A DNA stretch of 44,362 bases from a phage: the sequence record PZ445525.1. One strand, given 5' to 3'. Shown piece by piece: positions 1,397-32,388 of this stretch. The notes under the pieces were generated by a model. It saw nothing but the letters and a program-made list of their open reading frames with translations, was not told where the DNA came from and made no database searches. Position 1 is the first letter of the stretch. Each line of letters starts with the position of its first letter. Both the position numbers and the translations under genes were made by a program.

Positions 1397-2917
1397 ATGA
1401 CCGTTAACGTTGACAACCAGCACCCACTTTATGCGCGCATCGCGCCGGAGTGGAAAATGATCCGCGATTGTGTAGCAGGGGAGCGCGCCGTGAAGGCGTG
1501 CGGCCCCTTGTACCTGCCACACCCAGCCAGCGGCGATAACACCGACCCGAAATCACGGGCGCGATATAAGGCGTATAAGCAACGCGCTGTATTCCTGAAC
1601 GCCACCGCCCGCACACTTAACGCACTGTTAGGCGTTGCCTTTGCTAAACCGGTAAGTCTTGACCTTTCCGGGGCGATGGCGGACCTGATTGACGACGTAG
1701 ACGGCAGCGGTATGCCGCTGCCACAACTCCTGCGCGGTGCTATGTCGGAAGTGCTGCAATCAGGTCGTGCGGGCTTTATGGTGGACTACGATCGCCAGGC
1801 GCATTTTGATGAACTGGGTAACGTAGTGCCGCAGACAGCGGCTGAGATGGCGTCACATCGCCCGCTTATCCGCCTGTACACGGCAGAACAGATCATCAAC
1901 TGGCGGCAGACCCACGGCGTCGATACGCTAATTGTGCTGAAGGAAACGGACGAAATCAGCACTGAAGATCCGGACGATTTCGCAAACCACGAAGTAACAA
2001 TCTGGACCGAGCTTCGCATGATTAACGGTGCGGCACACGCCCGCCGCTGGTTTTATAACGCGGACACGTCCGAGGTGCAAATGGACTTGCCGCGTGGGTT
2101 TACCCGCACCGACCTTGTTCCGCTGGTGGATGCTGCCGGTCGTGCGCTTACTCAACTTCCGTTTTGCTGGTGCGGCGCGGTGGATAACAACGCAACGCCA
2201 GACGCCGCGCCGCTGGCGGATATTGCGTCCATCAACATTAAGCACTACAACGCCGAAGCGGACGTCGCCGAGATTGCGCACATCGTGGGTCAACCTACCC
2301 TGGTGACAACGGGCTTGACTCAATCATGGGCTGACAAGAATCTGAAGGGCGGCATTGCCCTCGGTGCGACTAAGGGCGTTATTCTGGGTCAGAACATGGA
2401 CGCTAAACTGATTCAGGCGGAGGAGCGCAACTTGTCGGTTGCACTGTGTGAGCGTCGCGAATTGCAAATGGCTAAACTTGGCGCGGCCCTGGTCGAGAAG
2501 GGGACCGCACCTAAGACGGCAACTGAAGCGGCCTACGATGCGCAGACTGATAACAGTATCCTGTCGCTTATTGCCGGTAACGTTGAGAAGGCTTTCAACC
2601 GCGCGCTGCAAATCGTCCAGCTATTCACAGGCGACACCGCCGACCAGCGTGTGACGCTGAATAAGTTCTACACCGAGATCACGGTTGATGCGCAGCTTAT
2701 GACCGCGATGATGTCGGGTGTGCAGACGGGTACGGTCCGCCTGGCTGATTTCATCAAGTGGATGATGGCGCAGGGTGTCATCGACGACTCGCAAACCGTC
2801 GAGCAGGTGGAAGACGAATTGCGAAATCAGAATCCATTGCCTCAAATGTCCCCTGATGCGGTAGAATCTACCGAAGAAGACCCGGACAAGGTAGCGGACA
2901 ATGGCGAAGACAATTAA
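1397..2917 (+). CDS. portal protein
   Basis: 506-aa ORF immediately after terL with RBS aaggaaacgacc; size and position typical of portal; acidic C-terminus. Confidence 0.75.
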   Translation: MTVNVDNQHPLYARIAPEWKMIRDCVAGERAVKACGPLYLPHPASGDNTDPKSRARYKAYKQRAVFLNATARTLNALLGVAFAKPVSLDLSGAMADLIDDVDGSGMPLPQLLRGAMSEVLQSGRAGFMVDYDRQAHFDELGNVVPQTAAEMASHRPLIRLYTAEQIINWRQTHGVDTLIVLKETDEISTEDPDDFANHEVTIWTELRMINGAAHARRWFYNADTSEVQMDLPRGFTRTDLVPLVDAAGRALTQLPFCWCGAVDNNATPDAAPLADIASINIKHYNAEADVAEIAHIVGQPTLVTTGLTQSWADKNLKGGIALGATKGVILGQNMDAKLIQAEERNLSVALCERRELQMAKLGAALVEKGTAPKTATEAAYDAQTDNSILSLIAGNVEKAFNRALQIVQLFTGDTADQRVTLNKFYTEITVDAQLMTAMMSGVQTGTVRLADFIKWMMAQGVIDDSQTVEQVEDELRNQNPLPQMSPDAVESTEEDPDKVADNGEDN

Positions 2918-4004
2918 TCAATATTTGGCGGATCGAATGATTCGCCGTCACATCTTCACCCAGCGCTTGAGCAATGATCAGGCGCGGAGGGTGCTGGCTA
3001 TGTGGGAGAAGTTCCGGCCCGCTTTGCTGGGCAAGTTGACCGAGTTACTTGATGGCAAAAAGTCCATGAGCAACAAGGCACTTACCACACTGTTAACGCA
3101 ACTCGACAAGACCGTCAAAACGGAACTGCGCGCCGAGTTTAAAGTGCTGGCGGAGAGCCTTCAGGAGTTCGCCGACACCGAGGCTGATTATCTCGCCGAT
3201 ACATTAACGGCAGCGATCCAGCCCGCGGTCGCCGTACCGGCTGTCGAGGTGGTGGGTGTTGTGACCGGCGCGCAGATCGCAGCGACTGCAATGAAAAACC
3301 CGTTCCAGGGAAACACCATGATGCAATGGCCCGATTCACTTTCCGAGTGGACCCGGACGCAGATCGGCAATCAGGTGCGCGCTGGATTCATCCAGGGCAA
3401 GCCTACTATTGAAATTATTGCGGACGTGAGGCGCGCGCTCGGCGGTCGTAGTGCGCAAGCAATCTCAAGCGTTGTTAAGTCCGCGGTCAACCACTATGCG
3501 GCGACCGCCCGCGAATTAATGGTAAAAGCCAATGACGATATTCTCGAAGGTCGCCAATGGTTGGCTACATTGGACACGCATACTTCTCCCATGTGCCAGC
3601 TACGCGATCGCCTGTTTTATCCAGTTGGTGTTACTCCCGACACAAAAGGGAAGCGCGGCGGGAAAGTGGTGGCGGGGTCACAATATGGCGCGGGTCCTGG
3701 CAAGCTGCATTATTGCTGCCGTTCGACGGAGACGTGGAAAGTCAAAGGTATGGAGGATTGGCCCAGTGGTAAGCGTCCGGCACTGAAGGCTGATGCGGGC
3801 AGATTGCTGAGTGAGCAGGTCGACGCGCAGACTGATTTCTTCTCATGGGTGCAGCGCCAGCCTCGCCATATTCTGGAGGAGTTATATGGGGTGCAGCGCG
3901 CAGATCAGATTATGCGAGGCGTGAAAGTGCCGAAGATGTTCACCGATACTGGCGAATTAATGACTATTGCACAGCTTAAAAACCGGGGGTTATGGCGTGA
4001 TTAA
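2901..4004 (+). CDS. head morphogenesis protein (Mu F / SPP1 gp7-like minor head protein)
   Basis: 367-aa ORF overlapping portal stop; position after portal; W-x-T-L-D-T-H-T-S-P-M-C region recalls the phage head morphogenesis domain (recollection, unsearched). Confidence 0.55.
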   Translation: MAKTINQYLADRMIRRHIFTQRLSNDQARRVLAMWEKFRPALLGKLTELLDGKKSMSNKALTTLLTQLDKTVKTELRAEFKVLAESLQEFADTEADYLADTLTAAIQPAVAVPAVEVVGVVTGAQIAATAMKNPFQGNTMMQWPDSLSEWTRTQIGNQVRAGFIQGKPTIEIIADVRRALGGRSAQAISSVVKSAVNHYAATARELMVKANDDILEGRQWLATLDTHTSPMCQLRDRLFYPVGVTPDTKGKRGGKVVAGSQYGAGPGKLHYCCRSTETWKVKGMEDWPSGKRPALKADAGRLLSEQVDAQTDFFSWVQRQPRHILEELYGVQRADQIMRGVKVPKMFTDTGELMTIAQLKNRGLWRD

Positions 4005-5216: not shown

Positions 5217-5245
5217 TTGTGTGTCCTCGTTGTTGGTGTGCAACC

Positions 5246-5274
5246 AATATATGCAACCAATACGAGGATTGCAA
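5246..5274 (-). promoter_or_regulatory. candidate sigma70-type promoter for the reverse moron
   Basis: -35 TTGCAA (5269-5274), 17-nt spacer containing ATTGGTTGCA, -10 TATATT (5246-5251), second ATTGGTTGCA copy at the predicted start site. Confidence 0.4.
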
Positions 5275-5281
5275 GCGAATT

Positions 5282-5310
5282 TTGCGATTATTTTTATCGC
5301 TGATAATATT
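5282..5310 (+). promoter_or_regulatory. candidate promoter for scaffold/capsid genes
   Basis: TTGCGA, 17-nt spacer, TAATAT upstream of scaffold RBS aggggga; weak prediction. Confidence 0.3.
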
Positions 5311-5364
5311 AGAAGCGTGAAGTCGAGCGGGTGGCCTGCTCTGCCACAATCCCAGGGGGATAGC

Positions 5365-6069
5365 ATGAATCTTACTAAAGCAGAATATGACGCGTTGCCG
5401 GAAGGTATGAAGGCGCTTTTTGTTGCCGATGGCGACGGGTATAAATCAACATTCATGACCGCCGAAGAGGTACAGGCGGAAATCAAGGGTCTGAAAGACA
5501 ATAACGCTAAGCTGGTGAGCGAGAAGAAAGCAGAAGCTGAACGCCGCGCCGAAGCTGAGCGCCTTGCGAAAGAGAAAGAGGAAGCCGCCGCGCGCAAAAA
5601 TGGCGACCTCGAAGCGATCGACAAGTCCTGGAAGGATAAGTTTGCGAAACACGAAGCAGATACATCGGGAAAAATCGAAGCCTACCGCAAGCAGATCCAC
5701 GATCTCACCATCGGCAGCGCTGCCAAAGACCTGGCATCAAAGCTGTTCGGTAAGAATGCCGGAATCATGCAACGTCACGTTATGGATCGCCTGACGCTGG
5801 AAGACGGCGAAGACGGCAGCTTGAAAGTGCGTGTATTGCAGGATGGCAAACCGTCCGCTCTTACTATGGAAGAACTTGAAAAAGAGTTCCGTAATAACGC
5901 CGATTTTGCATCCGTCCTGGCTGGCACGCCAGCCGGTGGCGCGCCTAGCAAACCGACGCAGGTTGTCGAAGATGTGAAGTCGAAAATCACTATGGGCCAC
6001 AGCTTCGGTATCACTGACCTTACGAAACAGGCAGGTGAAATCATCGCTAAGATGGGCGACGACGAGTAA
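5365..6069 (+). CDS. capsid scaffold protein
   Basis: 234-aa Lys/Glu/Ala-rich helical protein (AEAERRAEAERLAKEKEEAAARK) directly upstream of the major capsid gene; RBS aggggga; the six-frame ORF start at 5014 is rejected because that part is antisense to the moron. Confidence 0.6.
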   Translation: MNLTKAEYDALPEGMKALFVADGDGYKSTFMTAEEVQAEIKGLKDNNAKLVSEKKAEAERRAEAERLAKEKEEAAARKNGDLEAIDKSWKDKFAKHEADTSGKIEAYRKQIHDLTIGSAAKDLASKLFGKNAGIMQRHVMDRLTLEDGEDGSLKVRVLQDGKPSALTMEELEKEFRNNADFASVLAGTPAGGAPSKPTQVVEDVKSKITMGHSFGITDLTKQAGEIIAKMGDDE

Positions 6070-6166
6070 GCAGATTGCCCGCGAAAGCGGGCAATTTTGC
6101 GAGCGCATAAATCTAAGGTAACATTAACGTCACTGGGCGAATGCTCACAACTCAAAGGATTTCGAT

Positions 6167-7267
6167 ATGTCTTTAACAGTGTTCCAGCGTAAACTCGTCA
6201 CCGCGGTTACGCAAATGATCCCCGACAACCTGAACGTGTTCAACGCTGCCGCTAATGGTGCTGTTGTTCTCGGCACAGGTGAAGTGCTGAAGGATGTTGT
6301 AGAGAAAATGTCCGTAGGCTTGATCGCCAACCTCGTTACCGACCGTAACGCCTATGCCCCTGTCGGTACTCCGGCAACCGCTAAAGTGCTGGCGCGTATG
6401 CTGACCAACTCGGTTAACCTTTCCGCGAAAGTTGGTCCGGTAGCAATCACGAAGGCCATGATGGCTAAAATCGAAACCAACGTTAACAGCGTTGCGGCTG
6501 AGATTGCGGCGCAGGCTACTCAAGCGATTATGCTGCACTACCTGAAAGCTGGTATCGGCGCAAGTAAAGCGGCGATCGAAAGCAACGCAGCGGCAAAATA
6601 CACCCAACCGGCGCGCGTTGACGGCGTTGGTGGTCGTACCTTCCCGACCCTGGCAGACTTCCCGCTGGCGGCTTCTAAGTTCGGCGATCAGGCGTCTTTG
6701 ATTAAGTCGTGGTTTATGGACGGCGTTACCTGGGCAAACTTCATTGCGTACCAGGCACTCCCTTCCGCTGAACAGGTATTCGCAATTGGCGATCTCCAGG
6801 TAATGGGTGATGGCCTGGGCCGTCGCTTCATTATCTCCGATGCCGCTGCCGATGCTATGGGCGCTGGCACAATGCTGGGTCTGGTCCCTGGCGCGGTTGC
6901 AGTTACCACCAACGGCCTCGATATGCTGGCGCAGGAAAAAGGCGGTAACGAGAACATCGAGCGCTGGTGGCAGGGCGAGTTCGACTTCAACGTGGCTGTT
7001 AAAGGCTATCGTCTGAAGGCGTCCGCTCGTACCCCGATCGAAGGCGTCCGCTCGTTCAAGCTGGACGATATCACCACTTCCGCTAACTGGGAACTGGACC
7101 AGGGCCAGGTAGACAACGCACCGGCAACCGTGCAGGATGTTGGCGCTGTGGGTGATGGCGATACTAAAGGTCGTCGTAAGACCCAGGCCGCACAGGCAGT
7201 GCCTACCCGTCACATCAAGGAAACCGCTGGCGTACTGGTTACGCTGACTGCGACCACCGCGTCTTAA
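6167..7267 (+). CDS. major capsid protein
   Basis: 366-aa ORF with RBS aaagga following the scaffold and followed by a strong terminator; Ala/Gly/Val/Thr-rich composition typical of HK97-fold capsid proteins. Confidence 0.8.
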   Translation: MSLTVFQRKLVTAVTQMIPDNLNVFNAAANGAVVLGTGEVLKDVVEKMSVGLIANLVTDRNAYAPVGTPATAKVLARMLTNSVNLSAKVGPVAITKAMMAKIETNVNSVAAEIAAQATQAIMLHYLKAGIGASKAAIESNAAAKYTQPARVDGVGGRTFPTLADFPLAASKFGDQASLIKSWFMDGVTWANFIAYQALPSAEQVFAIGDLQVMGDGLGRRFIISDAAADAMGAGTMLGLVPGAVAVTTNGLDMLAQEKGGNENIERWWQGEFDFNVAVKGYRLKASARTPIEGVRSFKLDDITTSANWELDQGQVDNAPATVQDVGAVGDGDTKGRRKTQAAQAVPTRHIKETAGVLVTLTATTAS

Positions 7268-7285
7268 CGGGCGCACATCCCAAAT

Positions 7286-7310
7286 GGGCGGGCTTATGCC
7301 CGCCTTTTTT
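7286..7310 (+). terminator. intrinsic terminator after major capsid gene
   Basis: hairpin gggcgggc-ttat-gcccgcc followed by TTTTTT. Confidence 0.7.
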
Positions 7311-7325
7311 ATAGGAGTTAATACA

Positions 7326-7826
7326 ATGTATGGCGACCCGCAAACCTTTGTCGATTATGCCGCTGCGCGAGGCGTTGAAGTCACGTTGGGCGATGCAACG
7401 CGACACCTTACCATCGTCAATGACTTCCTTAACGGCGTCAACTGGATCGGCGAACAAGCGGACACGACCGGAATCGACGCATGGCCCCGCATCAATTACC
7501 CATCGGACGGGAAGCCGGTGCGCGACTCGCTAACCGAAGTCGTGGCGGTAGTGCCTGTCGGGCAAATCGTAGACTTTGCATCAATCCCCGTCGCCGTTGA
7601 GCAAGCCGTTTACCGGCTGGCGCTGTTGGTGGCAGACGAGATCGATATTTCTCCGGTCGGCGATGGTAAAGAGACTATTCGCGAAACGGTCGGCCCGATC
7701 ACGATGGAGTATGACCCGGCGTCGATTGGTAGCGGGGTGTCGTTCCCGTGGTGGGATGGCTTGTTAGGGCACTGGGTTGATTCAGGCGGCAACGCCGCAG
7801 GCAATTTCGACGTATTCAGGGGGTAA
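7326..7826 (+). CDS. hypothetical head/neck protein
   Basis: 166-aa ORF from ATG 7326 with RBS aggag; first gene after the capsid terminator. Confidence 0.45.
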   Translation: MYGDPQTFVDYAAARGVEVTLGDATRHLTIVNDFLNGVNWIGEQADTTGIDAWPRINYPSDGKPVRDSLTEVVAVVPVGQIVDFASIPVAVEQAVYRLALLVADEIDISPVGDGKETIRETVGPITMEYDPASIGSGVSFPWWDGLLGHWVDSGGNAAGNFDVFRG

Positions 7827-7827
7827 T

Positions 7828-7959
7828 ATGAGTCCTGCATTACTCGCGGCGATAATCGCCGCCAACACTAAACGGCAACCAGAACAACCGGAGCCAGAAC
7901 AACCGGAGCCAGAACCAGCACCACCGGCACAGGAGAGTGAAGAAGATGGCGGGCTTTAA
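7828..7959 (+). CDS. small Pro/Glu-rich protein
   Basis: 43-aa ORF with RBS aggggg; contains QPEQPEPEQPEPEP encoded by a 15-bp tandem repeat. Confidence 0.35.
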   Translation: MSPALLAAIIAANTKRQPEQPEPEQPEPEPAPPAQESEEDGGL

Positions 7960-8299
7960 TTACGCAGGATTAAAGCGGAAAGTGAATCCGCTGATTAAAA
8001 AATTCGGCATGACCGTTACGGTTACGCGTCCTGGGGCTGTTGACCGCGTAGACGGCGAAGAAGTGGTCATCCCGCCGACCTCGTTTGACGTCATCGGTCT
8101 TCGCGAGGAGTATAAGCCGAGCGAGATCGACGGAACGCGTATCGTTGCCGGTGATGTGAAGTTTTTATGTCGGGCGGTTGAGCAATTGCGGGTTGGCGAC
8201 CTGGTTAACCTGAACGGCACTGACTACCGGGTCGTCAACCCTAACCCATTGCAACCGGCGGGCACTACCATGCTGTTTCAACTACAGCTAAGGGGCTAA
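7946..8299 (+). CDS. hypothetical neck/head-tail joining protein
   Basis: 117-aa ORF, ATG 7946 preferred over 7937 because of aggag spacing; located in the head-tail connector region. Confidence 0.45.
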   Translation: MAGFNYAGLKRKVNPLIKKFGMTVTVTRPGAVDRVDGEEVVIPPTSFDVIGLREEYKPSEIDGTRIVAGDVKFLCRAVEQLRVGDLVNLNGTDYRVVNPNPLQPAGTTMLFQLQLRG

Positions 8300-8300
8300 C

Positions 8301-8894
8301 GTGGCTGAGGTCTACTCATTCGCCGCCACCATTGCTACGTGGGTGGATAAGACGAAGGAGAACAACGATAAGGCGGTGCGGGCGTACGGTATGCAAATAC
8401 TCGGACGCCTTATTGAGATCTCCCCGGTAGGCGACCCCCGCCGGTGGAAGATTAACAAGGCTTACGCGCTTGCACGCGAACACGCGAACAAGGTGAACGC
8501 GGCGCAGCGCCGCAAGAACGGCGGCAAACTGAAGCGCGGGCAGAAGAAGCACGCCAGTGTGCTCGTCTCATTCAAAACTAAAAATGGCAATGTCACGTTC
8601 CGCCAGCGTGGCTGGGCCGCGAAGAATTACACCGGCGGACGCTTCCGGGGAAACTGGCAGGTTACGTTCGACCGCCCAGCTGTCGGAGCTATTGACCGCG
8701 TGGACAAGGCCGGAACGGCAACATTAGCCGCGGGGCGCGAAGTGCTGGCGCATTACGATTCCGGAGAATACGGGTCTATCTGGTTTACTAACAATGTGCC
8801 GTATGCGCAGCGACTTGAGTATGGCTGGAGTAAACAAGCGCCCGCGGGGATTGTTCGCGTCGTAGCGGCGGAAATTAATTCGAAGGTGAAATAA
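8301..8894 (+). CDS. hypothetical neck protein (GTG start)
   Basis: 197-aa ORF starting at GTG with RBS aagggg; basic central region; position between capsid and tail genes. Confidence 0.45.
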   Translation: MAEVYSFAATIATWVDKTKENNDKAVRAYGMQILGRLIEISPVGDPRRWKINKAYALAREHANKVNAAQRRKNGGKLKRGQKKHASVLVSFKTKNGNVTFRQRGWAAKNYTGGRFRGNWQVTFDRPAVGAIDRVDKAGTATLAAGREVLAHYDSGEYGSIWFTNNVPYAQRLEYGWSKQAPAGIVRVVAAEINSKVK

Positions 8895-9316
8895 TGAGCA
8901 ATACTCTAATCCGCAAGGCGCTTAATAGCGTAGTAGAAGAATTATCGGTAAGCCTGAGCACTAGCACGCGCCCGATAAAGGTTAACTGGGAGAACGTGAG
9001 CGGCGACCACGCAAACGGCAGCGGTGTCTACCTGGAACCGTATCTGCTCCCGGCCCCTACCCAGTTTGTGGGCTTCCAGCAGAAGGGCCGGGTCTATGCA
9101 GGCGTGTATCAGGTTGCCGTGGTATTTCCTGCAGGCACGGGCACACAGTATGCGAGCGAACTGGCGGACGCCATCGCGACGTCTGACAAGTGGCAGGCCG
9201 TAAGGCTTACCAGCGCTGCATTCCAGCTTCAGGACGCGCCATACACCAGTTCGGTGATTGAGGATGTTGACCGCGCCCGCATCGTGGTTACAGTGCCCTA
9301 TTCCTGTTGCGCCTGA
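8894..9316 (+). CDS. hypothetical tail completion/terminator candidate
   Basis: 140-aa ORF whose ATG overlaps the preceding stop; immediately upstream of the major tail protein. Confidence 0.4.
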   Translation: MSNTLIRKALNSVVEELSVSLSTSTRPIKVNWENVSGDHANGSGVYLEPYLLPAPTQFVGFQQKGRVYAGVYQVAVVFPAGTGTQYASELADAIATSDKWQAVRLTSAAFQLQDAPYTSSVIEDVDRARIVVTVPYSCCA

Positions 9317-9377
9317 TTTGGCGCAATTCTGCGCGTGCTGTATCATTAAACCGTATATCTAAACAGGAGCGTTCATT

Positions 9378-10103
9378 ATGGGTTATCAACTTCCTAACGG
9401 GTCCAGCGTCCAGATTGGGTCCGTACTGGGCAGCGGCATCGCTGTTACGGCAGCTACCAACGCCGCCGCGTCGATCTCCGACCTTACGCAAGGTTGCGTA
9501 ATTACCTGTGCGGCTTCGCATGGCCTGGTTGTTGGCGACGTTGTTATGTTCACTAAAACCCCGTGGGTCCGAGCGCTTAACCGCGCATTCATCGTGGGTA
9601 AAGTGGACACCAACGACGTTACGCTGGCGCGCTTCGACACCGAAGACGTCACAAAATACCCGACCGGCGCTTTCAGCGTAGGCACTCCGGGCGAAGTGGT
9701 GAAGGTGTCGAGCTTTATCGACTTCCCTTTCATTACTAACGTTGCCGTGTCTGGTGGCGACCAGCAGACGACTACCTTCCAGCCGTTGCAGGTGAACACC
9801 GCAATCAGTCTGAACACCACGAAAAACCCGTTGGTACAGACTTACACTTTCACCCACGACGAAGAAGACCCGATCCGCCCAATCCTGGAAGACCTGGACG
9901 ACACACAGAAAACCACTGTGATCAAGTTCACTAACCCGGCAGCGGCAAGCGGCAAAGGTGAGATCCGTATTTACCCAGCTAAGGTATCTTTCCAGAAGAT
10001 TCCGTCCGCTGAAGTAAACAACGTGGAAACGGTACAATCCACTCTGACCATGCAGTCTGATATGGTTATCTACCGTAAGGATCTGGTCGAGGCATTGTCT
10101 TGA
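9378..10103 (+). CDS. major tail (tube) protein
   Basis: 241-aa Thr/Val/Ser-rich ORF with RBS aggag, immediately upstream of the G/GT chaperone pair and followed by a terminator. Confidence 0.65.
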   Translation: MGYQLPNGSSVQIGSVLGSGIAVTAATNAAASISDLTQGCVITCAASHGLVVGDVVMFTKTPWVRALNRAFIVGKVDTNDVTLARFDTEDVTKYPTGAFSVGTPGEVVKVSSFIDFPFITNVAVSGGDQQTTTFQPLQVNTAISLNTTKNPLVQTYTFTHDEEDPIRPILEDLDDTQKTTVIKFTNPAAASGKGEIRIYPAKVSFQKIPSAEVNNVETVQSTLTMQSDMVIYRKDLVEALS

Positions 10104-10133
10104 TTTGGTCGCTTAAATAGCGAGTGTTAATAT

Positions 10134-10156
10134 GGGGCCAGCACGGCCCCTTTTTA
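10134..10156 (+). terminator. intrinsic terminator after major tail gene
   Basis: hairpin ggggccagcacggcccc followed by TTTTT. Confidence 0.65.
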
Positions 10157-10171
10157 TTGGAGAATACTACA

Positions 10172-10534
10172 ATGGCTAAAGCACCACTCTTTACACTTGA
10201 CCCCAAGCCGACCTTTAAGCTGCCGATTGAGATCCCGCGCCCTGGTGAGAACGAACCCGGCAAAATGACGTTTACCGTCCGCCACCGCCCGATCGACGAA
10301 TTTTCGCAGACCATGCAGGACACCGAACGCAAGCTGTCGGAATATGACGACAATGACCCGGACGGCTTTAACGTTATGGTCGAGGCCATCATGCACGTCG
10401 CAGAAGGCTGGAATCTGCCGGACGAATTTAACGCGGAGAACGTCCGCCGCCTGGTGGTCAACTATCCACGCGCGTTCGGGGTGTTCCACACGTCGTACTA
10501 TCTCGAACTGATGGGGTTGCGTGAAAAAAACTAA
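10172..10534 (+). CDS. tail assembly chaperone (G-like)
   Basis: 120-aa acidic ORF from ATG 10172 with RBS ggaga, between major tail and tape measure genes; ends 3 nt after the slippery heptamer A-AAA-AAC. Confidence 0.7.
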   Translation: MAKAPLFTLDPKPTFKLPIEIPRPGENEPGKMTFTVRHRPIDEFSQTMQDTERKLSEYDDNDPDGFNVMVEAIMHVAEGWNLPDEFNAENVRRLVVNYPRAFGVFHTSYYLELMGLREKN

Positions 10535-10848
10535 TTGAGGCGGCGCGACGCTTTTATGGCCCGCCGCCACCCTCCGAAGATTTAGCCGCAAGTTTATGGG
10601 GTGCGGCCCCCGAAGATGTTTGTCCGCCTGTTGCGCTATGGCCCGACAACGCGAAGGTCGTCGCAGTCTTCACAGATTGCTCCACGCAATGGCGCACCGG
10701 ATTTGGTGGCGCATACGGCATCGACTACGGCGTTCTGGAGTGGCTATTTAAGATGCACGGTATCGAAAACGAGCAGCGTGCGTTTAAAGATATCAAGCTA
10801 ATGGAGCGAATCGCGCTTGATGAGATGGCGCAGCAGAACCCCGCATAA
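10172..10848 (+). CDS. tail assembly chaperone GT fusion via programmed -1 ribosomal frameshift
   Basis: slippery A_AAA_AAC at 10525-10531 just before the G stop; the -1 frame is open for ~105 further codons (LIEAARRFYGPPPPSEDL...QQNPA) to a TAA at 10846-10848. Confidence 0.6.
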
Positions 10849-11170
10849 TGGAGCGGGACAGATCGGGGCGTCCCGTTTTGTCCCGCCTCCGCAAAACTGC
10901 ATACCTACTCACTTCCACTGCATAAACCCAAAACGGGACAAGCGGGACGTCCCGATCTATCCCACCCCATAAATGCGCATACCTATTCATATTTCGTGCA
11001 TAAAGCAAACGGGACAGAAAGCGGGACAAACAAGGGGTGGGACAAAGCGGGGCAGCACCCCGCCCCCACCAGTGCTGCCGCGGGTTTTAGCCGATCGGGA
11101 CAGGCGGGACAACTCCCAGTCTTTCAGACTAGACGGGGGTCAATGGCCCCCCTCGTCTGAGACTGAATAA
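10849..11170. repeat. GGGACA-iteron block with inverted sub-modules and terminal long hairpin (copy A)
   Basis: at least 8 exact GGGACA in ~270 bp; palindrome CGGGACGTCCCG; two inverted ~30-bp modules; 3' part (~10999-11170) about 85-90 percent identical to 38189-38362. Confidence 0.75.
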
Positions 11171-11233
11171 GGTTTGTTTTAAAATCGCTGATACAATGTC
11201 AATCGGCAACTGCATAAAAAAGGGGACTGCATA

Positions 11234-13876
11234 ATGGCAGATCAAGCGGCAGGCATCACGCTAAAGGCGGATGTTGCACAAATCAGAACGGCGAATACTG
11301 TGCTTGATTCATTCGCACAGAAATCCGAGAACACAGAAAACAAGGTTAAGAAATTAAACAACACCCTCGGCAACTCTAAAAAGGTGACGAGTGATGCCGC
11401 GGGCGGAATGGAAAAGCTGGCGAACGAATCGCAGCGCGCCGCCGATGGCATGACGAAACAGGAGCGACTCGCCAACAGGTTAGGCATGTCGACCAAAAAC
11501 CTGGGCTTTGCCTCGCGTAACGCAGCATTCCAGTTACAGGATATTGCGGTAACGCTTGAGATGGGTATGCCTGTGCACCGCGTTATGCTTCAGCAGTTAC
11601 CACAGCTTACTGGGGCGTTCGGTGGATTTGGTAACACGCTGCGTTATGTGGCGGGATTCCTCGGCCCGGTAGGGATCGGCATTGCAGCACTAACGGCAAC
11701 GTTAGGCGTAGGAGTGGCGGTTACGTCCCGTGCCGAAAACCAGGTCGCAGCGCTTAACAAGACGCTGGCGCTGTCGGGTAATATTTCCGGCCTCACCGCT
11801 AACCAGATCCTTGTGCTGTCGGAGAACGCCGAGCGTATGGGCGGGTCATTCAGTAAGACGCGTGACACAATCCAGGCGCTGGCAGCAGCGGGTGTGAAAG
11901 CGGGCGCTGACTTCGGCGCGCTGGCGAAAGTGGTGAATGACTTTGCGAAGGCGTCTAATCAGCCGATCTCTGACGTGGTTGAATCCATCTCAAAATTGTC
12001 GAACGACCCGGTCGGGGGACTGCGCGCACTGGCGGACCAGTATCACGTCGTTACCGAGGCGCAGATCCAGCAGGTGCAATCACTAGTGACGGCGGGTCGC
12101 GAAACCGAAGCGGTGGCGCTGGCTAACAAAACAGCCGCTGCGTCGTTCTCCAGCATGACCAATGAGATCAAGTCCAACATGGGTACGCTCGAGCGGTCGA
12201 TGAACGTCGTCACATCGGCAGCCAAATCCATGTGGGACGCCATCCTGGATGTGGGCCGCGCGCAGTCCTCGAATGAGTCCGAGATGAAAGCGCGTGAATC
12301 CTTGCAGCGCATGACCACGGCGTACTATGCCGAGATGAGGGCGGTAAACGCTGCCGGTGGGGTGATGACCGAAGCGCAGAAAGCGCGTATTAACATGCTT
12401 TACAGCGAACTGGTCGCCCAGGAAAAGGTGGTGGCGTCGCTCACCCTGCGCAACCGTGCCGAGCGAGACAACGCCAGCGCCGCGGACGAAGCCGCAAAGG
12501 CGAACGAGGAGGCCAATCGCACCGCCCGCGACCGCGCCGCGTTTGAGAAGGAGTACGCAACCAACGCGAAGCGGCGAGCCGACGAGATCGCCCGCCTCAA
12601 CTTGCTGAATAAGCGCGGTGTTATTAACGAGAAAGAACTAGCCGAGGCGGTGAAGCAGGTCAACGAGCGCTACAAAGACCCCGCACCGAAGAAAGCGGCG
12701 GCAATTCGAGTCGATGCCGGGCTGAAAATGCTGGAAGTCGCGCGAAGCGAATTAGCCCAGCTTCGAGAGTCTGGGAAGCAGATCGAAGCCAACGCATCGA
12801 CGCAGACCCGCACGCAACGCGCGCAAGCGGCTCTTAACAAGCTGATTGCCGATAATGAGCAGTTAATCGCCGCAAGCAAGGAGCGCACACTAACGGCAGC
12901 AGAAAAGCAGCAAACGGCGGAGTTCGAGGCGGTTAAATCGGTACGCGAGCAGATCGTCGAAGAAGCCAAATTGCTGGACGCGAAAGAGAAGCAGATCAAG
13001 GCACACGCCCAGGTCGAGGCATTCATCAAGAACCAGAACGCCGAGCTAAAAGCCACCGCGGCGGGCTATGCGCTTTCTACTCGCGAAGCGGCTAACCTGC
13101 GCGAAGAGTTGCAGCTAATTGACCGCCTTCAGCGTGCCGGTGCTAACGATACTGATATTGACAAGGCGGTGTCTAAGCTGCGTGAGGTTCAGGAAGCACA
13201 GACCGGTGCTAACGCCTCATTATGGGATGGATTCAGTCGCGGGCTTCGCGATAGTGTGGATGAAATGGGTAACGGATACACGCAGATGGCGTCACTCACA
13301 AAATTCACGTTCGGCGCTATGCAGGACACGATGAACGAGTTTTTCGAGACTGGCAAGCTGAACGCAAAAGATATGGTTAAGTCCATTCTGAGCGAATTAA
13401 TAAAGCTGGCTACCTCGCAGGCGTTCAAGTCCATCGTTAGCGCTTTCGGTGGTGACGGAGGCAAAAACGGATTGTTCGGCGCTATCTTCTCGGGCCTCAC
13501 TAAGAATGCGGACGGCGGAGCGTACGCAGGAGGTAATCTCGCGGCCTATTCGGGGCAGGTGGTAAGCCAGCCAACCTTTTTCAGTTATGGCGTCCAGGCG
13601 TTCGCTAAGGGCGCAGGATTGATGGGTGAGGCGGGACCCGAAGCCATCATGCCGCTGAAGCGCGGCCCGGACGGCAAACTTGGCGTTGCCGCTGCCGGTG
13701 GTGTCGGGGGGATGATTGTAACGACCAACGTTAACATGGGGACCGGTAAGACGGATACCAGTGTTAGCGGACCAGACCCGCGCACCGCGCAGGCGTTCGG
13801 AAAGCAAATCACCGAGTCGGTCAAGGCCGAGATCGTGAAGGCGACGAAACCGGGTGGTGTACTTTACAAACGATGA
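11234..13876 (+). CDS. tail tape measure protein
   Basis: 880-aa Ala/Gln/Glu-rich coiled-coil ORF with RBS aagggga, between chaperone and distal tail genes. Confidence 0.85.
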   Translation: MADQAAGITLKADVAQIRTANTVLDSFAQKSENTENKVKKLNNTLGNSKKVTSDAAGGMEKLANESQRAADGMTKQERLANRLGMSTKNLGFASRNAAFQLQDIAVTLEMGMPVHRVMLQQLPQLTGAFGGFGNTLRYVAGFLGPVGIGIAALTATLGVGVAVTSRAENQVAALNKTLALSGNISGLTANQILVLSENAERMGGSFSKTRDTIQALAAAGVKAGADFGALAKVVNDFAKASNQPISDVVESISKLSNDPVGGLRALADQYHVVTEAQIQQVQSLVTAGRETEAVALANKTAAASFSSMTNEIKSNMGTLERSMNVVTSAAKSMWDAILDVGRAQSSNESEMKARESLQRMTTAYYAEMRAVNAAGGVMTEAQKARINMLYSELVAQEKVVASLTLRNRAERDNASAADEAAKANEEANRTARDRAAFEKEYATNAKRRADEIARLNLLNKRGVINEKELAEAVKQVNERYKDPAPKKAAAIRVDAGLKMLEVARSELAQLRESGKQIEANASTQTRTQRAQAALNKLIADNEQLIAASKERTLTAAEKQQTAEFEAVKSVREQIVEEAKLLDAKEKQIKAHAQVEAFIKNQNAELKATAAGYALSTREAANLREELQLIDRLQRAGANDTDIDKAVSKLREVQEAQTGANASLWDGFSRGLRDSVDEMGNGYTQMASLTKFTFGAMQDTMNEFFETGKLNAKDMVKSILSELIKLATSQAFKSIVSAFGGDGGKNGLFGAIFSGLTKNADGGAYAGGNLAAYSGQVVSQPTFFSYGVQAFAKGAGLMGEAGPEAIMPLKRGPDGKLGVAAAGGVGGMIVTTNVNMGTGKTDTSVSGPDPRTAQAFGKQITESVKAEIVKATKPGGVLYKR

Positions 13877-13911
13877 TAAAATGGCCCTCACTACAACGTG
13901 GGGGCTTTTTT

Positions 13912-14511
13912 ATGTCACAAGGTACAATCACACTAACTAAGGGAAGTAAGACCGTCACGGGCGCGGGAACGGCGTTCTTGAGCGAGATCGGGAAGGTCCG
14001 CGTATTTACCCGCATCGATGGCAGCGACTACACCGGAAAAATTGCGGCATTCAACTCTAACACCGTCATCACCCTGGCGGATAACTGGGCAGGTCCGACA
14101 AAAGCCGGTGCGGCTTATGAGCTAATCGAAGCGCACGACCCGCGGTCAAACGAATGGCCCTATTACTGGCACATGCAATTGCAAGGCGGCGGAGACGTGC
14201 AGTTGGCTTTCCGGTCCGAGGAATTGCAATTCGGTAACGGTTACGGTCAGAACATCGCGGACGGCCCGAACGCCGAAACGAAACAGTTCCCCGTGCAATT
14301 CATCGGGCTGACTACTGATAAGTGGTGCGACCCTAAACTGGTTTACAAATTCCTTCGCGGGCACTTCGTCAAGCCGTTTGTTGTCACCGCGCCGGATGGC
14401 GAAACAGGTTTATTCGTGGTCGAGCGTTCGAGCTTGTCGTACACTGACAACGGGCACTACACGGCAACGGTGTCCGCCACCCTTAAGACAGCTATTGGAT
14501 TCGTAAGATGA
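13912..14511 (+). CDS. minor tail protein (gpM-like)
   Basis: 199-aa ORF first after tape measure; alternative start at 13873 overlaps the tape measure stop. Confidence 0.6.
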   Translation: MSQGTITLTKGSKTVTGAGTAFLSEIGKVRVFTRIDGSDYTGKIAAFNSNTVITLADNWAGPTKAGAAYELIEAHDPRSNEWPYYWHMQLQGGGDVQLAFRSEELQFGNGYGQNIADGPNAETKQFPVQFIGLTTDKWCDPKLVYKFLRGHFVKPFVVTAPDGETGLFVVERSSLSYTDNGHYTATVSATLKTAIGFVR

Positions 14512-15296
14512 ATAAACTATATCGCGAGGCGACGCGCTTTGATCCATCGGGCCGCGTTCGCCTGATTCACATTGACGCGCAGGACGTGGAGCCGGGCGAC
14601 GGCGCGATCGGCGCGGGCCATCACTATTTTCACTACTGCTTTATTCCGCACACTGCCGAGGATATTGCCGCCGCAGGTGGTGACGAGGACAAGCTAAAAC
14701 CTAAATCCATCTTCTTCGGCGGGCAGGAGTTCGAATTTTGGCCCTTCGATTTGTCCGGCCTCAACTTCTCCACATCAACGGCAGCAGAACCGCAGCTGAC
14801 CATTGTCGATATTGGCGGCATAATCACCCGGCTATCATTGAATCACGACCAGCTACTGGGCGCGAAGGTTGAAATAATCGACACGTTCGCGAAGTTCCTG
14901 GATAACGGGTCGGATCCAGACCCGACGCAAAAACGTGTCCAGGAGTATTACATCGACTCACAGGTCGGGCGCAATCCAGGCAAGCAAATCACCTTCGCAT
15001 TATCCTCCCCCGCGGATATGGAGGGGCAAGTAGTACCACGCCGCCAGATCATGAACATGTGCGAATGGGCGCTCAATGGGAAGTACGCCAGCGGTGACGG
15101 TTGCACATGGAACCTTGCGCAGCCCGGAATCAAATATTACGACGAGCGCGGAAACGAAGTCATCTCGATGAATATGGACCGATGCGGCGGATGCTTGTCG
15201 GACTGCTATCTTCGTTTTGGACAAGGTCTTGCGGACCCGAAAGCGGCGGTGCTGGACTTCGGCGGTTTTCCTGGATCAAAATTGATTAAGGGGTAG
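14508..15296 (+). CDS. minor tail protein (gpL-like)
   Basis: 262-aa ORF overlapping the previous stop; C-terminal Cys cluster (C-x-C ... C-x2-C-x3-C) as in Fe-S-containing lambda gpL-type proteins. Confidence 0.7.
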   Translation: MNKLYREATRFDPSGRVRLIHIDAQDVEPGDGAIGAGHHYFHYCFIPHTAEDIAAAGGDEDKLKPKSIFFGGQEFEFWPFDLSGLNFSTSTAAEPQLTIVDIGGIITRLSLNHDQLLGAKVEIIDTFAKFLDNGSDPDPTQKRVQEYYIDSQVGRNPGKQITFALSSPADMEGQVVPRRQIMNMCEWALNGKYASGDGCTWNLAQPGIKYYDERGNEVISMNMDRCGGCLSDCYLRFGQGLADPKAAVLDFGGFPGSKLIKG

Positions 15297-15298
15297 TC

Positions 15299-16039
15299 AT
15301 GCTAACGAAGAAGGTTAAACGCGATATCGCCGCACACGTTGCGGCATGTCTGCCGGAAGAAGCGTGCGGGCTGGTCGTCATGGTGGGCCGCAAACAAGTG
15401 TTTATCCCGTGCCTGAACGTCTTCGAAGACCCAACCGGCGCGCGCTCGCGAAAGGACGCGTTTACAATTAGTGATATGGCCTGGGTGGATGCCGAGGATA
15501 TGGGCGACGTTGTGCGCGTAGTCCACTCGCACCCCGGGCAGCGCGAGCTAACCCCGTCATTGGGCGACGTTAACGGGTGCAATGGTAGCGGCGTCGTCTG
15601 GTCAATTACCAATGAGTATGGCGACTTTATCGAGATCGACCCGGAAGACCCGCCGCTGGTAGGCCGCCGATTTGTTCTCGGAATTACGGATTGTTATGGC
15701 CTCGTTATGGACTGGCATAAAAAGCAGGGCGTAAATTTGCCAGACTTCCGCGTACCGTACAACTGGTGGGAGACAGGAGAAAACCTGTATATGGACAATT
15801 GGTATGGCGCGGGCTTCCGGGAGTGTGAGGAGAATACGCCGGGGGCGATGGTTATCATGCAGATTAGCGCGCCAGTGCCTAATCATGCCGGAATCTACCT
15901 TCCGGGCAACCAACTACTACACCATATCTACGGCAGCCTGTCGAGCGTCGTTCCCTTCCGGGCGGGATTTTTCCGGGACAATGTGGTTAAATGGGTTCGT
16001 CATAAAGACCTACCGGGGAATATCACAGAATGGCAATGA
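15299..16039 (+). CDS. tail assembly protein (gpK-like; MPN/JAMM plus NlpC/P60-like)
   Basis: JAMM motif HSHPGQ...S..D; downstream Cys (DCYG) and His (HAG) consistent with an NlpC/P60 region. Confidence 0.75.
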   Translation: MLTKKVKRDIAAHVAACLPEEACGLVVMVGRKQVFIPCLNVFEDPTGARSRKDAFTISDMAWVDAEDMGDVVRVVHSHPGQRELTPSLGDVNGCNGSGVVWSITNEYGDFIEIDPEDPPLVGRRFVLGITDCYGLVMDWHKKQGVNLPDFRVPYNWWETGENLYMDNWYGAGFRECEENTPGAMVIMQISAPVPNHAGIYLPGNQLLHHIYGSLSSVVPFRAGFFRDNVVKWVRHKDLPGNITEWQ

Positions 16040-16647
16040 CCACATTTAAATTGTACGGCGTATTAGGACGCCGATTCGGTAAAGTGCACAAGCTGGACTG
16101 TTTCACACCGGGCGAGGGTATCACCGGCCTGTGCGTGAAGTTGCCTGGCTTACAGGACTTTCTAATGTCGGCCCACCTGGACAACATGATGTTTAAAGTG
16201 CGCAAGGGCAATCACACTTTGACCGGCTACGACGAGTTAGGTGAGTTCCACGGCGACCGCGTAGTGACCATCGCGCCGGTTATGACTGGTGCAAAAAGCG
16301 GACTGGGCCAATTGCTGGCGGGTGTCGCGATCGTGGTGGCGTCGTTCTATACCGGCGGGCTTGCTACCGCCGCTTTCGGGGCTTCGGCGGCAACCGCTGC
16401 CGCTATAGGTACGGCGACGTTTTCGTTCGGCATGTCGCTTGCGATGGGCGGTGCTATGCAATTGCTGTCGCCACAACCGAAAGGATTGCAGACAAGGCAG
16501 GACGTGGATAACAAGGCGTCGTACGCGTTCGGCGGACCAGTAAACACCACCGCGCAAGGTACGGCACTTGGTGTATTATGGGGCGAGCGTGAGATCGGCG
16601 GCGCTATTATTTCAGCCGGAATCGTAACCGAGGATTTGAACGAATGA
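16030..16647 (+). CDS. tail assembly protein (gpI-like)
   Basis: 205-aa ORF overlapping the K-like stop; Gly/Ala-rich hydrophobic C-terminal half; conserved position before the J-like gene. Confidence 0.6.
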   Translation: MAMTTFKLYGVLGRRFGKVHKLDCFTPGEGITGLCVKLPGLQDFLMSAHLDNMMFKVRKGNHTLTGYDELGEFHGDRVVTIAPVMTGAKSGLGQLLAGVAIVVASFYTGGLATAAFGASAATAAAIGTATFSFGMSLAMGGAMQLLSPQPKGLQTRQDVDNKASYAFGGPVNTTAQGTALGVLWGEREIGGAIISAGIVTEDLNE

Positions 16648-21246: not shown

Positions 21247-21326
21247 GGTATCATCTCCTATATTTGGTTGAGTTTTAGTATTACACCGCTCGATCAAGAA
21301 TGCAACCAATTTATGAGGATTTAGCT

Positions 21327-24121: not shown

Positions 24122-24183
24122 TATGTGGTCCTTTTTAGCGTGGGGCCTTATTGCCCCGACGCGTTAACTATAGTGCAACCAAC

Positions 24184-24654
24184 CTATTGGTTGCAAGTAA
24201 ATTTTGCAACATTTATTGCGTAAATTTTCGGGACCAAATCGCTACACGCCCGGCGAATTGCCGCGATGTTCTTCGGACAGTCTTCAATGATGACCAGTTC
24301 CGACACGTCCGCATAGCAGACCATTTTGAACACCGCGCACGCTTTAAACTCTGGCGGCGGGGTGTCGTCCAGCATGTGGCGCATAAACAACCGCCCTACG
24401 GGGAATACTTCCAATTGCTCGGCGGTGGTTTCCCAGCATTCACGCTGCCGGTTTGTCAAATACGCTATCTCGAAGCCTTGCTCTTTGTACATGCGCAACA
24501 GCGGCAGCATATCCATGTTCAGGTCTTCGCGTACGTGCGCTTTGTGCCACTTCGCCCAAAAAGTGGATTTGGTTTTTATACCCGGCACCAGGTCGGCGCG
24601 TGCATCACTCGAACCATTAATAACGCCATCCAGATCACAAATCAGTAGTTTCAT
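24184..24654 (-). CDS. HAD-superfamily phosphatase
   Basis: N-terminal motif I L-I-C-D-L-D-G-V (DxDG[TV]); 156 aa. Confidence 0.55.
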   Translation of the reverse strand: MKLLICDLDGVINGSSDARADLVPGIKTKSTFWAKWHKAHVREDLNMDMLPLLRMYKEQGFEIAYLTNRQRECWETTAEQLEVFPVGRLFMRHMLDDTPPPEFKACAVFKMVCYADVSELVIIEDCPKNIAAIRRACSDLVPKIYAINVAKFTCNQ

Positions 24655-25786: not shown

Positions 25787-25867
25787 CGTGTTGTCTCCAG
25801 GTATTAAAAAGGGCGTCCAAACCGGACACCCTCAATATAATGCAACCAATCTTATTATGCAACCAAT

Positions 25868-28798: not shown

Positions 28799-29077
28799 CT
28801 ACGCGACCAATTCAGCAACCAATAAATCGCAGTCGGCTATGTTGTCGATAACGCGAACGTCAGCACCGCGGCGGGCCATTCGCTCATGTTCACGTACCTG
28901 GTGCGGCTTCGGTTTTCCACCTGGGCGCTTCACTTCGACGAACACTATTTTGCCGTTAATGATGATAATCAGGTCGGGCGCACCCGCGTGCCCCTCCCAT
29001 GCCAGTTTTCGGCAGAATCCGCCAACATCTTTCACCCGTTTCATAAGGTGACTCTGCACCTTGCCTTCTGGGGTCAT
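28799..29077 (-). CDS. VRR-NUC domain nuclease
   Basis: G-A-P-D-L-I...V-E-V-K PD-(D/E)xK signature in a ~90-aa protein; adjacent to SNF2 helicase as is common in phages. Confidence 0.6.
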   Translation of the reverse strand: MTPEGKVQSHLMKRVKDVGGFCRKLAWEGHAGAPDLIIIINGKIVFVEVKRPGGKPKPHQVREHERMARRGADVRVIDNIADCDLLVAELVA

Positions 29078-32331: not shown

Positions 32332-32388
32332 TTTCCAATTCCTCATTTTCACATGTATCGGGGTTAATGGAAGCCACCCCGTTCGGCT

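Follow-up and report, generated by a model that had tools for sequence, protein, structure and literature searches.

A short asymmetric box recurring on predicted promoters of a Dhillonvirus genome, and its candidate regulator

Genome organization and distribution of the box

The 44,362-nucleotide (nt) stretch of phage DNA analysed here (sequence record PZ445525.1; this whole stretch is called the window below) is a nearly complete Dhillonvirus genome, i.e. that of an HK578/SO-1-like virulent siphophage of Escherichia coli. Dhillonviruses are among the commonest E. coli siphophages, are represented in the BASEL collection and serve in studies of phage defence and phage therapy. PaulFeyerabend and similar phages are 92-95% identical to the window, and PaulFeyerabend is colinear with it from the large terminase gene on. 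The structural genes are read rightward, from position 1 to about 22.9 kilobases (kb), and the genes of DNA metabolism leftward, between about 35.3 and 23 kb. Another block, at 35.5-43.7 kb, is again read rightward and encodes a small helix-turn-helix (HTH) protein, a helicase-primase, small early proteins, lysis proteins and a metallophosphatase. The subject of this work is a box of 9-10 base pairs (bp) that recurs throughout this genome, with the core A-TTGGTTGC followed by A more often than by C or G (A-TTGGTTGC-(A>C/G)).

The box is far more frequent than expected by chance. TGCAACCAA occurs in 12 exact copies compared to 0.42 expected from dinucleotide shuffles (none of 100 shuffles reaches 12) and ATTGGTTGC in 14 copies compared to 0.36, while 18 copies of the 10-mer with at most one mismatch are found where 3.5 are expected. 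According to a provisional gene map, on which all intergenic counts depend, non-coding DNA makes up 6.8% of the window and holds 10 of the 12 copies of TTGGTTGCA (binomial P ~1e-10) and 15 of the 20 copies of TTGGTTGC (P ~3e-14). Moreover, the "coding" copy at 24187 merely touches a stop codon, and those at 39271 and 28814 lie within conserved internal promoters. Shuffling of synonymous codons leaves the count of TTGGTTGC nearly the same (17.5 vs 20 in the real sequence), because the copies are non-coding. A sequence-only reading of this genome had described a recurrent, mostly intergenic motif, and had named base composition and a coding repeat as the explanations that would undermine it. The dinucleotide shuffles, a control of the kind which that reading had proposed, rule out the former, and the non-coding location together with the codon shuffles rules out the latter, including any artefact of codon usage; the motif is real, and its intergenic preference is borne out.

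The inventory of sites needed correction rather than revision. All previously listed copies exist, and most of the listed positions agree with ours within 1-4 nt (the slips are 38511 for 38513, 38541 for 38544 and 39269 for 39271), but the copies at 28814-28823, 38422-38431 (minus strand) and 42170-42179 (minus strand), as well as a degenerate one at 28802-28811, had been overlooked. One-mismatch variants (TTGGTTGCC or TTGGTTGCG) occur at 32388/32404 and 38106/38141. The 21-nt string TATATTGGTTGCACACCAACA, reported as common to a moron promoter and an early promoter, is indeed found in two exact copies (5231-5251 on the minus strand and 38541-38561 on the plus strand). The window also contains four palindromes of the form TTGGT-N{3,7}-ACCAA, three with N5, one with N6 and none with N3. 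Among the two "related palindromes" noticed earlier, the one placed at 35451 is a genuine TTGGT-N5-ACCAA at 35461-35475, whereas the other (42308-42323) has the N6 spacing, lies in coding DNA and is probably due to chance.

Boxes on predicted promoters

Orientation of each copy and inspection of its surroundings, combined with a consensus scan with exact coordinates, place about 20 boxes on the -35 element, the spacer, the -10 element or the +1 position of 11 predicted sigma70-type promoters, which serve early, replication/DNA-metabolism and moron units. At all 11 sites -35-like and -10-like hexamers are 16-18 nt apart (e.g. TTGACA-18-TATCAT, with 11 of 12 matches to the consensus, TTGCAA-17-TATATT and TTGACC-17-TAAATT), and every box-bearing non-coding region has such a pair overlapping the box. 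The suggestion that the motif is embedded in promoter-like sites is therefore sustained, with the box in the spacer, at -35 or over -10/+1. The promoter-associated boxes extend from about -40 to +17, i.e. they occupy the polymerase footprint (-35 to +20) in which repressor operators are expected.

Four arrangements recur. In P21, P25, P28 and P38b the box serves as the -35 element (TTGGTTGCAT, then 16-17 nt, then the -10). In P24, P39 and P42 it is inverted and overlaps or adjoins the -35 (TTGCAACCAAT). It lies in the spacer against the -10 in P5, P24, P25, P28, P32 and P35L, and over -10/+1 in P5, P38b, P32 and P42. The orientation with respect to transcription is mixed (about 12 boxes co-directional, 8 opposed), and neighbouring boxes, 9-35 bp apart, form both direct and inverted pairs.

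P5 (5231-5274, minus strand), ahead of the moron gene for Nmad5, reads TTGCAA-17-TATATT; its box 1 (5252-5261) abuts the -10, and its box 2 (5239-5248) covers -10/+1 and is part of a TTGGT-N5-ACCAA palindrome at 5233-5247. Both boxes are invariant in 4 genomes, and the spacer bases vary. P21 (21278-21310, minus), which precedes a cor-like lipoprotein moron, uses the box at 21301-21310 as its -35 (TTGCAT), followed by the extended -10 TGT-AATACT. In P24 (24167-24196, minus; TTGCAA-18-TATAGT) an inverted box pair, TGCAACCAA-N4-TTGGTTGCA, spans 24174-24195. P25 (25834-25867, minus) has a box as -35 (25858-25867, TTGCAT) and a second one (25841-25850) that fills the spacer and abuts TATATT. The internal promoter P28 (28790-28823, minus), conserved in 15 genomes, combines the box ATTGGTTGCT as -35 (28814-28823) with the degenerate box ATTGGTCGCG in the spacer (28802-28811), followed by TATAGT. 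P32 (32387-32425, minus; TTGACC-17-TAAATT), predicted to serve the SSB/DNA-polymerase unit, carries inverted boxes in the spacer (32403-32412) and over -10/+1 (32387-32396). The leftward early promoter P35L (35281-35310, minus; TTGACA-18-TATCAT) has a box in the spacer (35288-35297), 2 nt from the -10.

P35L is divergent from the rightward early promoter P35R (35430-35475, plus; TTGACA-17-TAGTTT), which would drive the HTH gene, and both have the consensus TTGACA. P35R carries the palindrome TTGGTcattaACCAA (35461-35475), which begins 2 nt after the -10 and has the same N5 geometry as the second boxes of P5 and P38b. P38b (38513-38561, plus) consists of a box as -35 (38513-38522, TTGCAT), 17 nt and TATATT, and of a second box over -10/+1 (38544-38553), which forms a palindrome at 38545-38559. 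The in-gene promoter P39 (39270-39298, plus; TTGCAA-17-TACATT) has an inverted box (39271-39280) overlapping the -35. Finally, P42 (42141-42179, plus; TTGACT-18-CATACT) follows a terminator at 42111-42132 and contains inverted boxes right after the -35 (42147-42156) and right after the -10 (42170-42179), the latter being degenerate in the window and perfect in other genomes.

The late genes are devoid of this element. The 15-kb structural block (5365-20066) contains no box, and neither does the candidate late promoter, the extended -10 TGTTATAAT (43734-43742) preceding the gene for the small terminase. Thus, the earlier claim that the motif controls both early and late or accessory units holds for early, replication and moron promoters, and not for the late structural operon.

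Could the box be simply a part of the promoter, such as an extended -35 or a discriminator, read by the host sigma70 holoenzyme? It includes TTGCA, which often coincides with the -35 in either orientation (TTGGTTGCA, or T plus TGCAACCAA, giving TTGCAA), and in P5 and P38b the box starts inside the -10 (TATATTGG). However, an intrinsic element would not be expected to change its orientation and to move between the -35, the spacer and the +1 position, to form inverted pairs and palindromes, or to flank iterons with no -10 nearby (see below); besides, its TTGG part is conserved as well as its TTGCA part. We regard this possibility as very improbable. Since the orientation, the spacing and the position of the box in the promoter all vary, we interpret it as an operator rather than a polymerase recognition element, which favours the former in the choice between "operator" and "promoter module" that had been left open.

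The N5 and N6 spacing of the palindromes bears on the possibility that the box is the target of a host transcription factor, e.g. the GntR-family regulator PdhR. The PdhR box is AATTGGTnnnACCAATT (PMC7660256). The left part of our box coincides with the PdhR half-site, AATTGGT, and an extended form of the box, AATTGGTTGC, is frequent in two metagenomic contigs related to the window (L024 and L152, see below). Nonetheless, no box has a partner half-site at the N3 distance that the PdhR palindrome (AATTGGT-N3-ACCAATT) requires, the conserved TGC(A) part plays no role in the PdhR site, it would be without precedent for a host metabolic repressor to have about 20 sites on one virulent phage of 44 kb, and our literature search found no paper linking the box word to a host factor. 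A host factor is therefore most improbable.

Other known elements were considered and rejected. A sigma54 promoter (TGGCAC-N5-TTGCA, with GG and GC 10 nt apart) does not fit by inspection, as GG and GC are 4 nt apart in the box and no pair of boxes lies in the -24/-12 register; likewise, none of the sigma54, DnaA, IHF, CRP and NtrC consensus sequences fits by eye. L5 gp71-type stoperators would not show 12 co-directional and 8 opposed copies lying on promoters rather than in transcribed spacers. A structured RNA or a hairpin in the 5' leader finds no support in the z-scores of leader folding (+0.85, +0.38 and -0.50), and the window has no Rfam or tRNA matches.

Several features adjoin the predicted promoters. 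A terminator-like hairpin (GGGTGTCCGGTTTGGACGCCC followed by TTTTT; 25806-25828, minus), present in all genomes, lies within 5 nt of the P25 -10, so that transcription from P25 would run directly into it, unless it belongs to the upstream gene or is an attenuator. A highly conserved block of the divergent early region (35316-35420) includes a run of A whose length varies (A10-13), the hairpin AGCGCCG...CGGCGCT, which on the minus strand has the form of an intrinsic terminator, and a promoter-like site with TG (TTGAAA-17-AATAAT, minus strand, 35417-35389). A coding sequence for 36 amino acids is annotated at the equivalent position in the PaulFeyerabend record, and the block could correspond to a short leftward transcript or a tiny open reading frame (ORF). 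Between P42 and the metallophosphatase gene there is a short ORF for 26 amino acids (42201-42281; MARNDIWVLAILSTAAFIGMVICELS) with a good ribosome-binding site; its ATG context is conserved across genomes, and its frame differs from that of the long ORF 42218-43486 in the window. At 43703-43742 a strong terminator (AGCCCGCCGATTTGGTGGGCT, then a T run) is followed by the perfect extended -10 TGTTATAAT, the likely promoter of the late operon; the small terminase ATG is at 43812.

Conservation among relatives

All Dhillonvirus genomes examined contain 10-13 exact copies of the box, and orthologous intergenic regions of related phages retain it across the genus: in 20 Dhillonvirus genomes the boxes are constant and the adjoining spacer bases are not. 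In alignments of the orthologous regions (4-19 genomes per site) the boxes and the hexamers are fixed, in up to 19 genomes, and the bases between them vary. Invariant columns constitute 89.8% of the box columns and 70.1% of the other columns of the same alignments (Fisher P = 2e-10, which is only indicative, because the columns of an alignment depend on one another). Changes in the -10 hexamers are confined to positions 3-5 (TATCAT/TATTAT/TAATAT; TAAATT/TAGATT/TACATT; TATATT/TAGATT), and in P32 to position 3 (TAAATT, TAGATT, TACATT), with positions 1, 2 and 6 conserved and the spacer free to vary, which is the pattern expected of real sigma70 -10 elements.

The number of boxes changes in whole units. 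P25 of PaulFeyerabend has acquired a third tandem box by duplication of a 17-bp unit, and the origin-like region B (described below) has 2 or 3 boxes depending on the genome, the number again shifting by duplication of whole units. In the syntenic metagenomic contigs L024, L026 and L028 there are two tandem boxes in the spacer of the leftward early promoter (P35L). On the other hand, individual boxes persist when their context does not: the P39 box (39271) and TTGCAA-17-TACATT are kept even where the adjacent coding sequence has been replaced, and the region B box at 38422 is conserved while its flanks diverge. The two-box P5 promoter with its leader (ACACCAACA..GAGG) is conserved ahead of different genes (5231-5274 in the window, 5618-5660 in L004 and 5872-5900 in L020), namely the Nmad5 gene in the window, a gene annotated as RusA-like resolvase/DNA polymerase III beta subunit in SO-1 and another small ORF in CHD5UKE2; judging from these alignments, it looks like a portable cassette for the expression of morons. 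The fixation of boxes and hexamers, the change of copy number by unit duplication and the retention of the cassette together suggest functional promoter-operator units rather than drift.

The HTH protein as a candidate reader of the box

The best candidate for a box-binding protein is the one suggested by the sequence-only reading, namely the 109-residue product of the gene at 35490-35819 (plus strand), which is the only one of the 27 non-structural proteins scanned with a DNA-binding domain recognizable by Pfam (HTH_23, 4e-7; Sigma70_r4_2, 4e-6). Its N-terminus is variable, a long helix of about 55 residues is predicted, and an HTH of three helices forms the C-terminus; in the AlphaFold2 (AF2) model, with a predicted local distance difference test (pLDDT) score of 85, a short helix precedes the long one. 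Searches of the PDB by sequence and by fold return generic HTH domains only (resolvase, LuxR, DeoR, sigma region 4), with E ~1. At 90% identity the family comprises 24 clusters, just three full-length members were recovered when 1.8 billion cluster representatives were searched with a profile, and no relatives were found in bacterial genomes; it is an orphan family. Its N-terminal part has been swapped between lineages, and the segment LELLNGTAA...EGKSWAMIAE.TGIN.STVRSWVRN is nearly invariant. Database records label its members "transposase", "resolvase" or "Gam-like".

The HTH protein and the box tend to occur together in distant relatives. L024, L026 and L028 (about 72% identity over half of their length) have kept the HTH gene. 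In CHD5UKE2 the HTH variant is 47% identical, and in L152 the homologue (P0025) is the most divergent found. The recognition helix (S-T-V/I-R/K-x-W) is preserved in all five, and ATTGGTTGC is the top 9-mer in each of them (in L024 if runs of N are set aside), including L152 with its most divergent homologue. The boxes of these contigs occupy similar promoter positions, and the +1 of the HTH gene promoter bears a box or a palindrome in every lineage, at the position of P35R in L024, L026 and L028. This recurrent site at its own promoter and the co-occurrence with the box further support the candidacy of the HTH protein. Conversely, the syntenic Guernseyvirinae have an XRE-type protein at the position of the HTH gene and no HTH homologue, and no promoter boxes were found in four of the five relatives without the HTH protein (Shemara, K1H, SS3e and fEg-Eco19). 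Altogether, five HTH-positive lineages have the box and four HTH-negative ones lack promoter boxes; the Serratia phage Tsm2 is HTH-negative and has boxes.

Region B, iterons and the helicase-primase

The boxes that are not obviously in promoters belong to the origin-like region B (38095-38440, plus strand), which follows the helicase-primase gene (35830-38094, plus). Here, two direct boxes (ATTGGTTGCC; 38106-38115 and 38141-38150) and an inverted one (38422-38431) flank a hairpin and the non-coding iterons GCGGGACAA (38194-38305), with no -10 nearby. About 200 bp of this region (38170-38375) are duplicated, with approximately 85% identity, in region A (10975-11175), and the duplicate holds the GCGGGACAA iterons and the conserved hairpin segment (CCCAGTCTTTCAGACTAGACGGGGGTCA.TGGCCCCCCTCGTCTGAGACTGAATAA). 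The GenBank record of SO-1 annotates repeat regions A and B with nothing more on them; the ORFs 10973-11170 and 38177-38362 are probably artefacts of this repeat. Region A has the iterons and no box. Therefore the box is not itself an origin iteron, which would form a tandem cluster common to A and B; it only flanks the iterons of region B. In L003, L019, L023 and others an extra 54-bp unit, absent from the window, is found at the start of region B (relative to 38090); this unit adds a third ATTGGTTGCC box together with a perfect palindrome of 18 bp, ATATGGGAATTCCCATAT.

If region B is the origin, the box could be a replication element read by the C-terminal domain of the helicase-primase or by another replication protein, its promoter copies coupling occupancy to transcription or acting as secondary loading or priming sites. 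Consistently with this idea, in Dhillonvirus, L024, L026, L152, Tsm2 and, in variant form, Shemara the box clusters are always located at the 3' end of the helicase-primase gene or immediately behind it, Tsm2 and Shemara lack the HTH protein, and the C-terminal segment of the helicase-primase (residues ~660-754) has a winged-helix-like sequence pattern in our reading of the alignment, although no domain match or model confirms the fold. But the majority of boxes coincide with promoter hexamers remote from region B, and region A has iterons only. Moreover, the C-terminal segment, including its recognition-helix region, differs between Dhillonvirus and Tsm2, in which the box is the same. Within the Dhillon-like lineages this segment changes (GGT to GMPKGGS) together with the iterons (GGGACAA to GGTGCCA, the latter type found in L026 and L152), and the box remains unchanged. 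Since the C-terminus of the helicase-primase covaries with the iterons and not with the box, the box is left to the other DNA-binding protein, and a primary role in replication appears decidedly improbable. The helicase-primase may be considered an alternative candidate binder of the box, but more likely it acts on the iterons; by analogy with P4 alpha and its ori/crr iterons, we tentatively pair the helicase-primase with the iterons and the HTH protein with the box.

A proposed model of dispersed operators

The box is very probably a protein-binding regulatory site, and its binder is quite probably encoded by the phage. For the HTH protein as that binder we see about an even chance, as judged from domain content and co-occurrence, and repression appears to us somewhat more probable than activation as the outcome of binding. 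Steric repression is the simplest interpretation, because the promoter boxes lie within the polymerase footprint, at varying positions and in both orientations. We propose that the boxes are dispersed operators of a phage repressor that regulates its own synthesis and shuts off the early genes, a scenario which, taken as a whole, we hold to be evenly poised between true and false. The 109-residue protein would be made from the strong rightward early promoter P35R, and each HTH would read one asymmetric box of 9-10 bp. Occupancy of the boxes at -35, in the spacer or at -10/+1 of the 11 promoters would exclude the host RNA polymerase; P35R would be autoregulated, the early, replication and moron units would be turned down together, and the box-free promoter of the late operon would stay active. 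The boxes that flank region B may tie the same protein to the control of replication.

The main rival to this scenario keeps the binder and changes the sign of control. Under positive or dual control, the HTH protein would repress only the promoters with consensus TTGAC(A/C/T) (P35L, P35R, P32 and P42), whereas at P21, P25, P28 and P38b, where TTGGTTGCAT lies about 17 nt from the -10, it would recruit or replace sigma region 4 in the manner of a middle-gene activator. In four or five promoters the box lies at a fixed distance (17-18 nt) from the -10 and offers only 3 of 6 matches to TTGACA, the promoters with a consensus -35 carry the box elsewhere, and the Sigma70_r4_2 match (4e-6) would agree with such a function. 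However, the second boxes of P25, P28 and P38b (in the spacer or over -10/+1) would bring an activator into a clash with the polymerase, TTGCAx with a good -10 can work unaided, the fold search found generic HTH domains only (E ~1), and AsiA and MotA are absent from the Pfam scans of the 27 non-structural proteins. The last result, together with the varying position and orientation of the box, also argues against a T4 MotA-type middle promoter. We consider dual control unlikely. It is tantalizing to think of the 109-residue protein as a bifunctional switch, for which the box is a surrogate -35 (activation), a spacer or +1 operator (shut-off) and an origin flank, although this appears quite improbable. 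If it were true, one protein paired with one word would set the timing of transcription in a virulent siphophage and link it to replication initiation, and the two-box promoter would be a portable cassette placing newly acquired morons under the same control.

Several observations weigh against the proposed repressor scenario. First, both the nature of the binder and the direction of control are deduced from sequence comparisons, and so is the activity of the promoters, which are consensus predictions; a generic promoter scan showed no enrichment over shuffles and hence cannot by itself validate them. Second, the four promoters with the box exactly at the weak -35 TTGCAT also fit activation. 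Third, boxes exist without the HTH protein: Tsm2 has 6 copies of TTGGTTGCA vs 0.29 expected, including 4 copies of TTGGTTGC clustered inside the 3' end of its helicase-primase gene, while Shemara has three ATGTTGGCTGC boxes in the equivalent of region B, so that the origin-proximal boxes may predate the HTH protein or have another reader. Finally, the lineages in which the box and the HTH protein co-occur are related, and part of the association could reflect shared ancestry; among those examined, we found no lineage in which the recognition helix and the box had changed together.

If the repressor scenario is correct, it provides a promoter map of 11 units with a candidate master regulator, explains how a conserved two-box cassette brings accessory moron genes into the programme of the phage, and assigns a function to an orphan HTH family currently labelled "transposase", "resolvase" or "Gam-like".

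Other repeated words

A second word, ACGGCAGCG, unrelated to the box, is over-represented in the window: 16 copies compared to 0.66 in dinucleotide shuffles and 2.0 (maximum 6) in synonymous-codon shuffles; ACGGCAGC has 30 copies vs 5.35 expected. Each of the 16 copies of ACGGCAGCG falls within coding sequence, and all three frames and both senses are represented (e.g. at 879, 1701, 3207, 9015, 22143, 24009, 28452, 34996 and 43570 on the plus strand, and at 17138, 23819, 26853, 28610, 36121 and 39455 on the minus strand). For the relaxed form, ACGGCA[AG]C, the count is 49 (35 on the plus and 14 on the minus strand, irrespective of gene direction), and the same word family heads the k-mer lists of Tsm2, Shemara, K1H, SS3e and fEg-Eco19. 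A polar signal, Chi-like or for priming, is one possible function. Five copies of the E. coli Chi octamer, GCTGGTGG, are present in the window (2122, 6963, 23219 and 41434 on the plus strand, 37092 on the minus strand).

When IMG/VR was scanned for pairs of boxes no more than 25 nt apart, mostly 27-bp coding tandem repeats in unrelated contigs were returned. In one unrelated viral contig, L134 (IMG/VR 3300038463_000167), 420 bp (2750-3180) contain 12 copies of TAATTGGTTGCATC at irregular intervals, an arrangement resembling an iteron array. Its neighbouring ORFs have no informative Pfam match, and the sharing of the box word is probably coincidental.

Comparison with known regulatory systems

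In the literature searched, we found no published description of the motif, of Dhillonvirus promoters or of the SO-1 repeat regions, no transcriptome of any Dhillonvirus and no account of the organization of its transcription; for the box word itself, only primers and unrelated sequences were retrieved. The system resembles several well-known ones.

The operators of the P1 repressor C1 are, like the box, asymmetric words scattered genome-wide that overlap many promoters, and they occur as single or paired ("bivalent") sites forming partial palindromes. However, P1 is temperate, C1 is an immunity repressor and its site has 17 bp, whereas here the phage is virulent, the site has 9-10 bp and the presumed reader is an HTH_23-type orphan; the Pfam scan of the 109-residue protein gave no match to C1, a direct test of homology not having been made. 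The stoperators of L5 gp71 are also numerous short asymmetric sites in short intergenic regions, read by one phage HTH protein, but they lie downstream of promoters in one orientation and block elongation in a temperate phage, while the boxes lie in the core promoter in both orientations. In lambda, as predicted here, an early HTH protein (Cro/CI) binds to the divergent early promoters, including its own, and the palindrome TTGGT-N5-ACCAA at the P35R +1 is reminiscent of a classical dimer operator of the Cro/CI type. On the other hand, the lambda operators are 17-bp palindromes at two promoters bound by HTH_3 proteins, in contrast to mostly single asymmetric sites at about 11 promoters and a candidate that is not HTH_3.

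Two further systems share the use of a short word. The KorA/KorB operators of RK2/IncP are found at many promoters of a compact replicon, where they coordinate replication, maintenance and accessory genes, although RK2 is a plasmid, its operators are palindromic and the proteins are unrelated. The T4 MotA box, like the box of P21, P25, P28 and P38b, is a phage-specific 9-bp word replacing the sigma70 -35, but it is fixed at about -30 in a single orientation and needs AsiA, whereas both position and orientation vary here. The alpha protein of P4 is a helicase-primase with a C-terminal DNA-binding domain (suggested here by the alignment) and two distant iteron regions; this likeness to ori/crr fits the GCGGGACAA iterons and not the box, which is absent from region A and present at promoters. 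Thus, the box system is outside the P1 C1, L5 gp71, Kor and Cro/CI families, and it would represent another realization of dispersed operators rather than a new principle.

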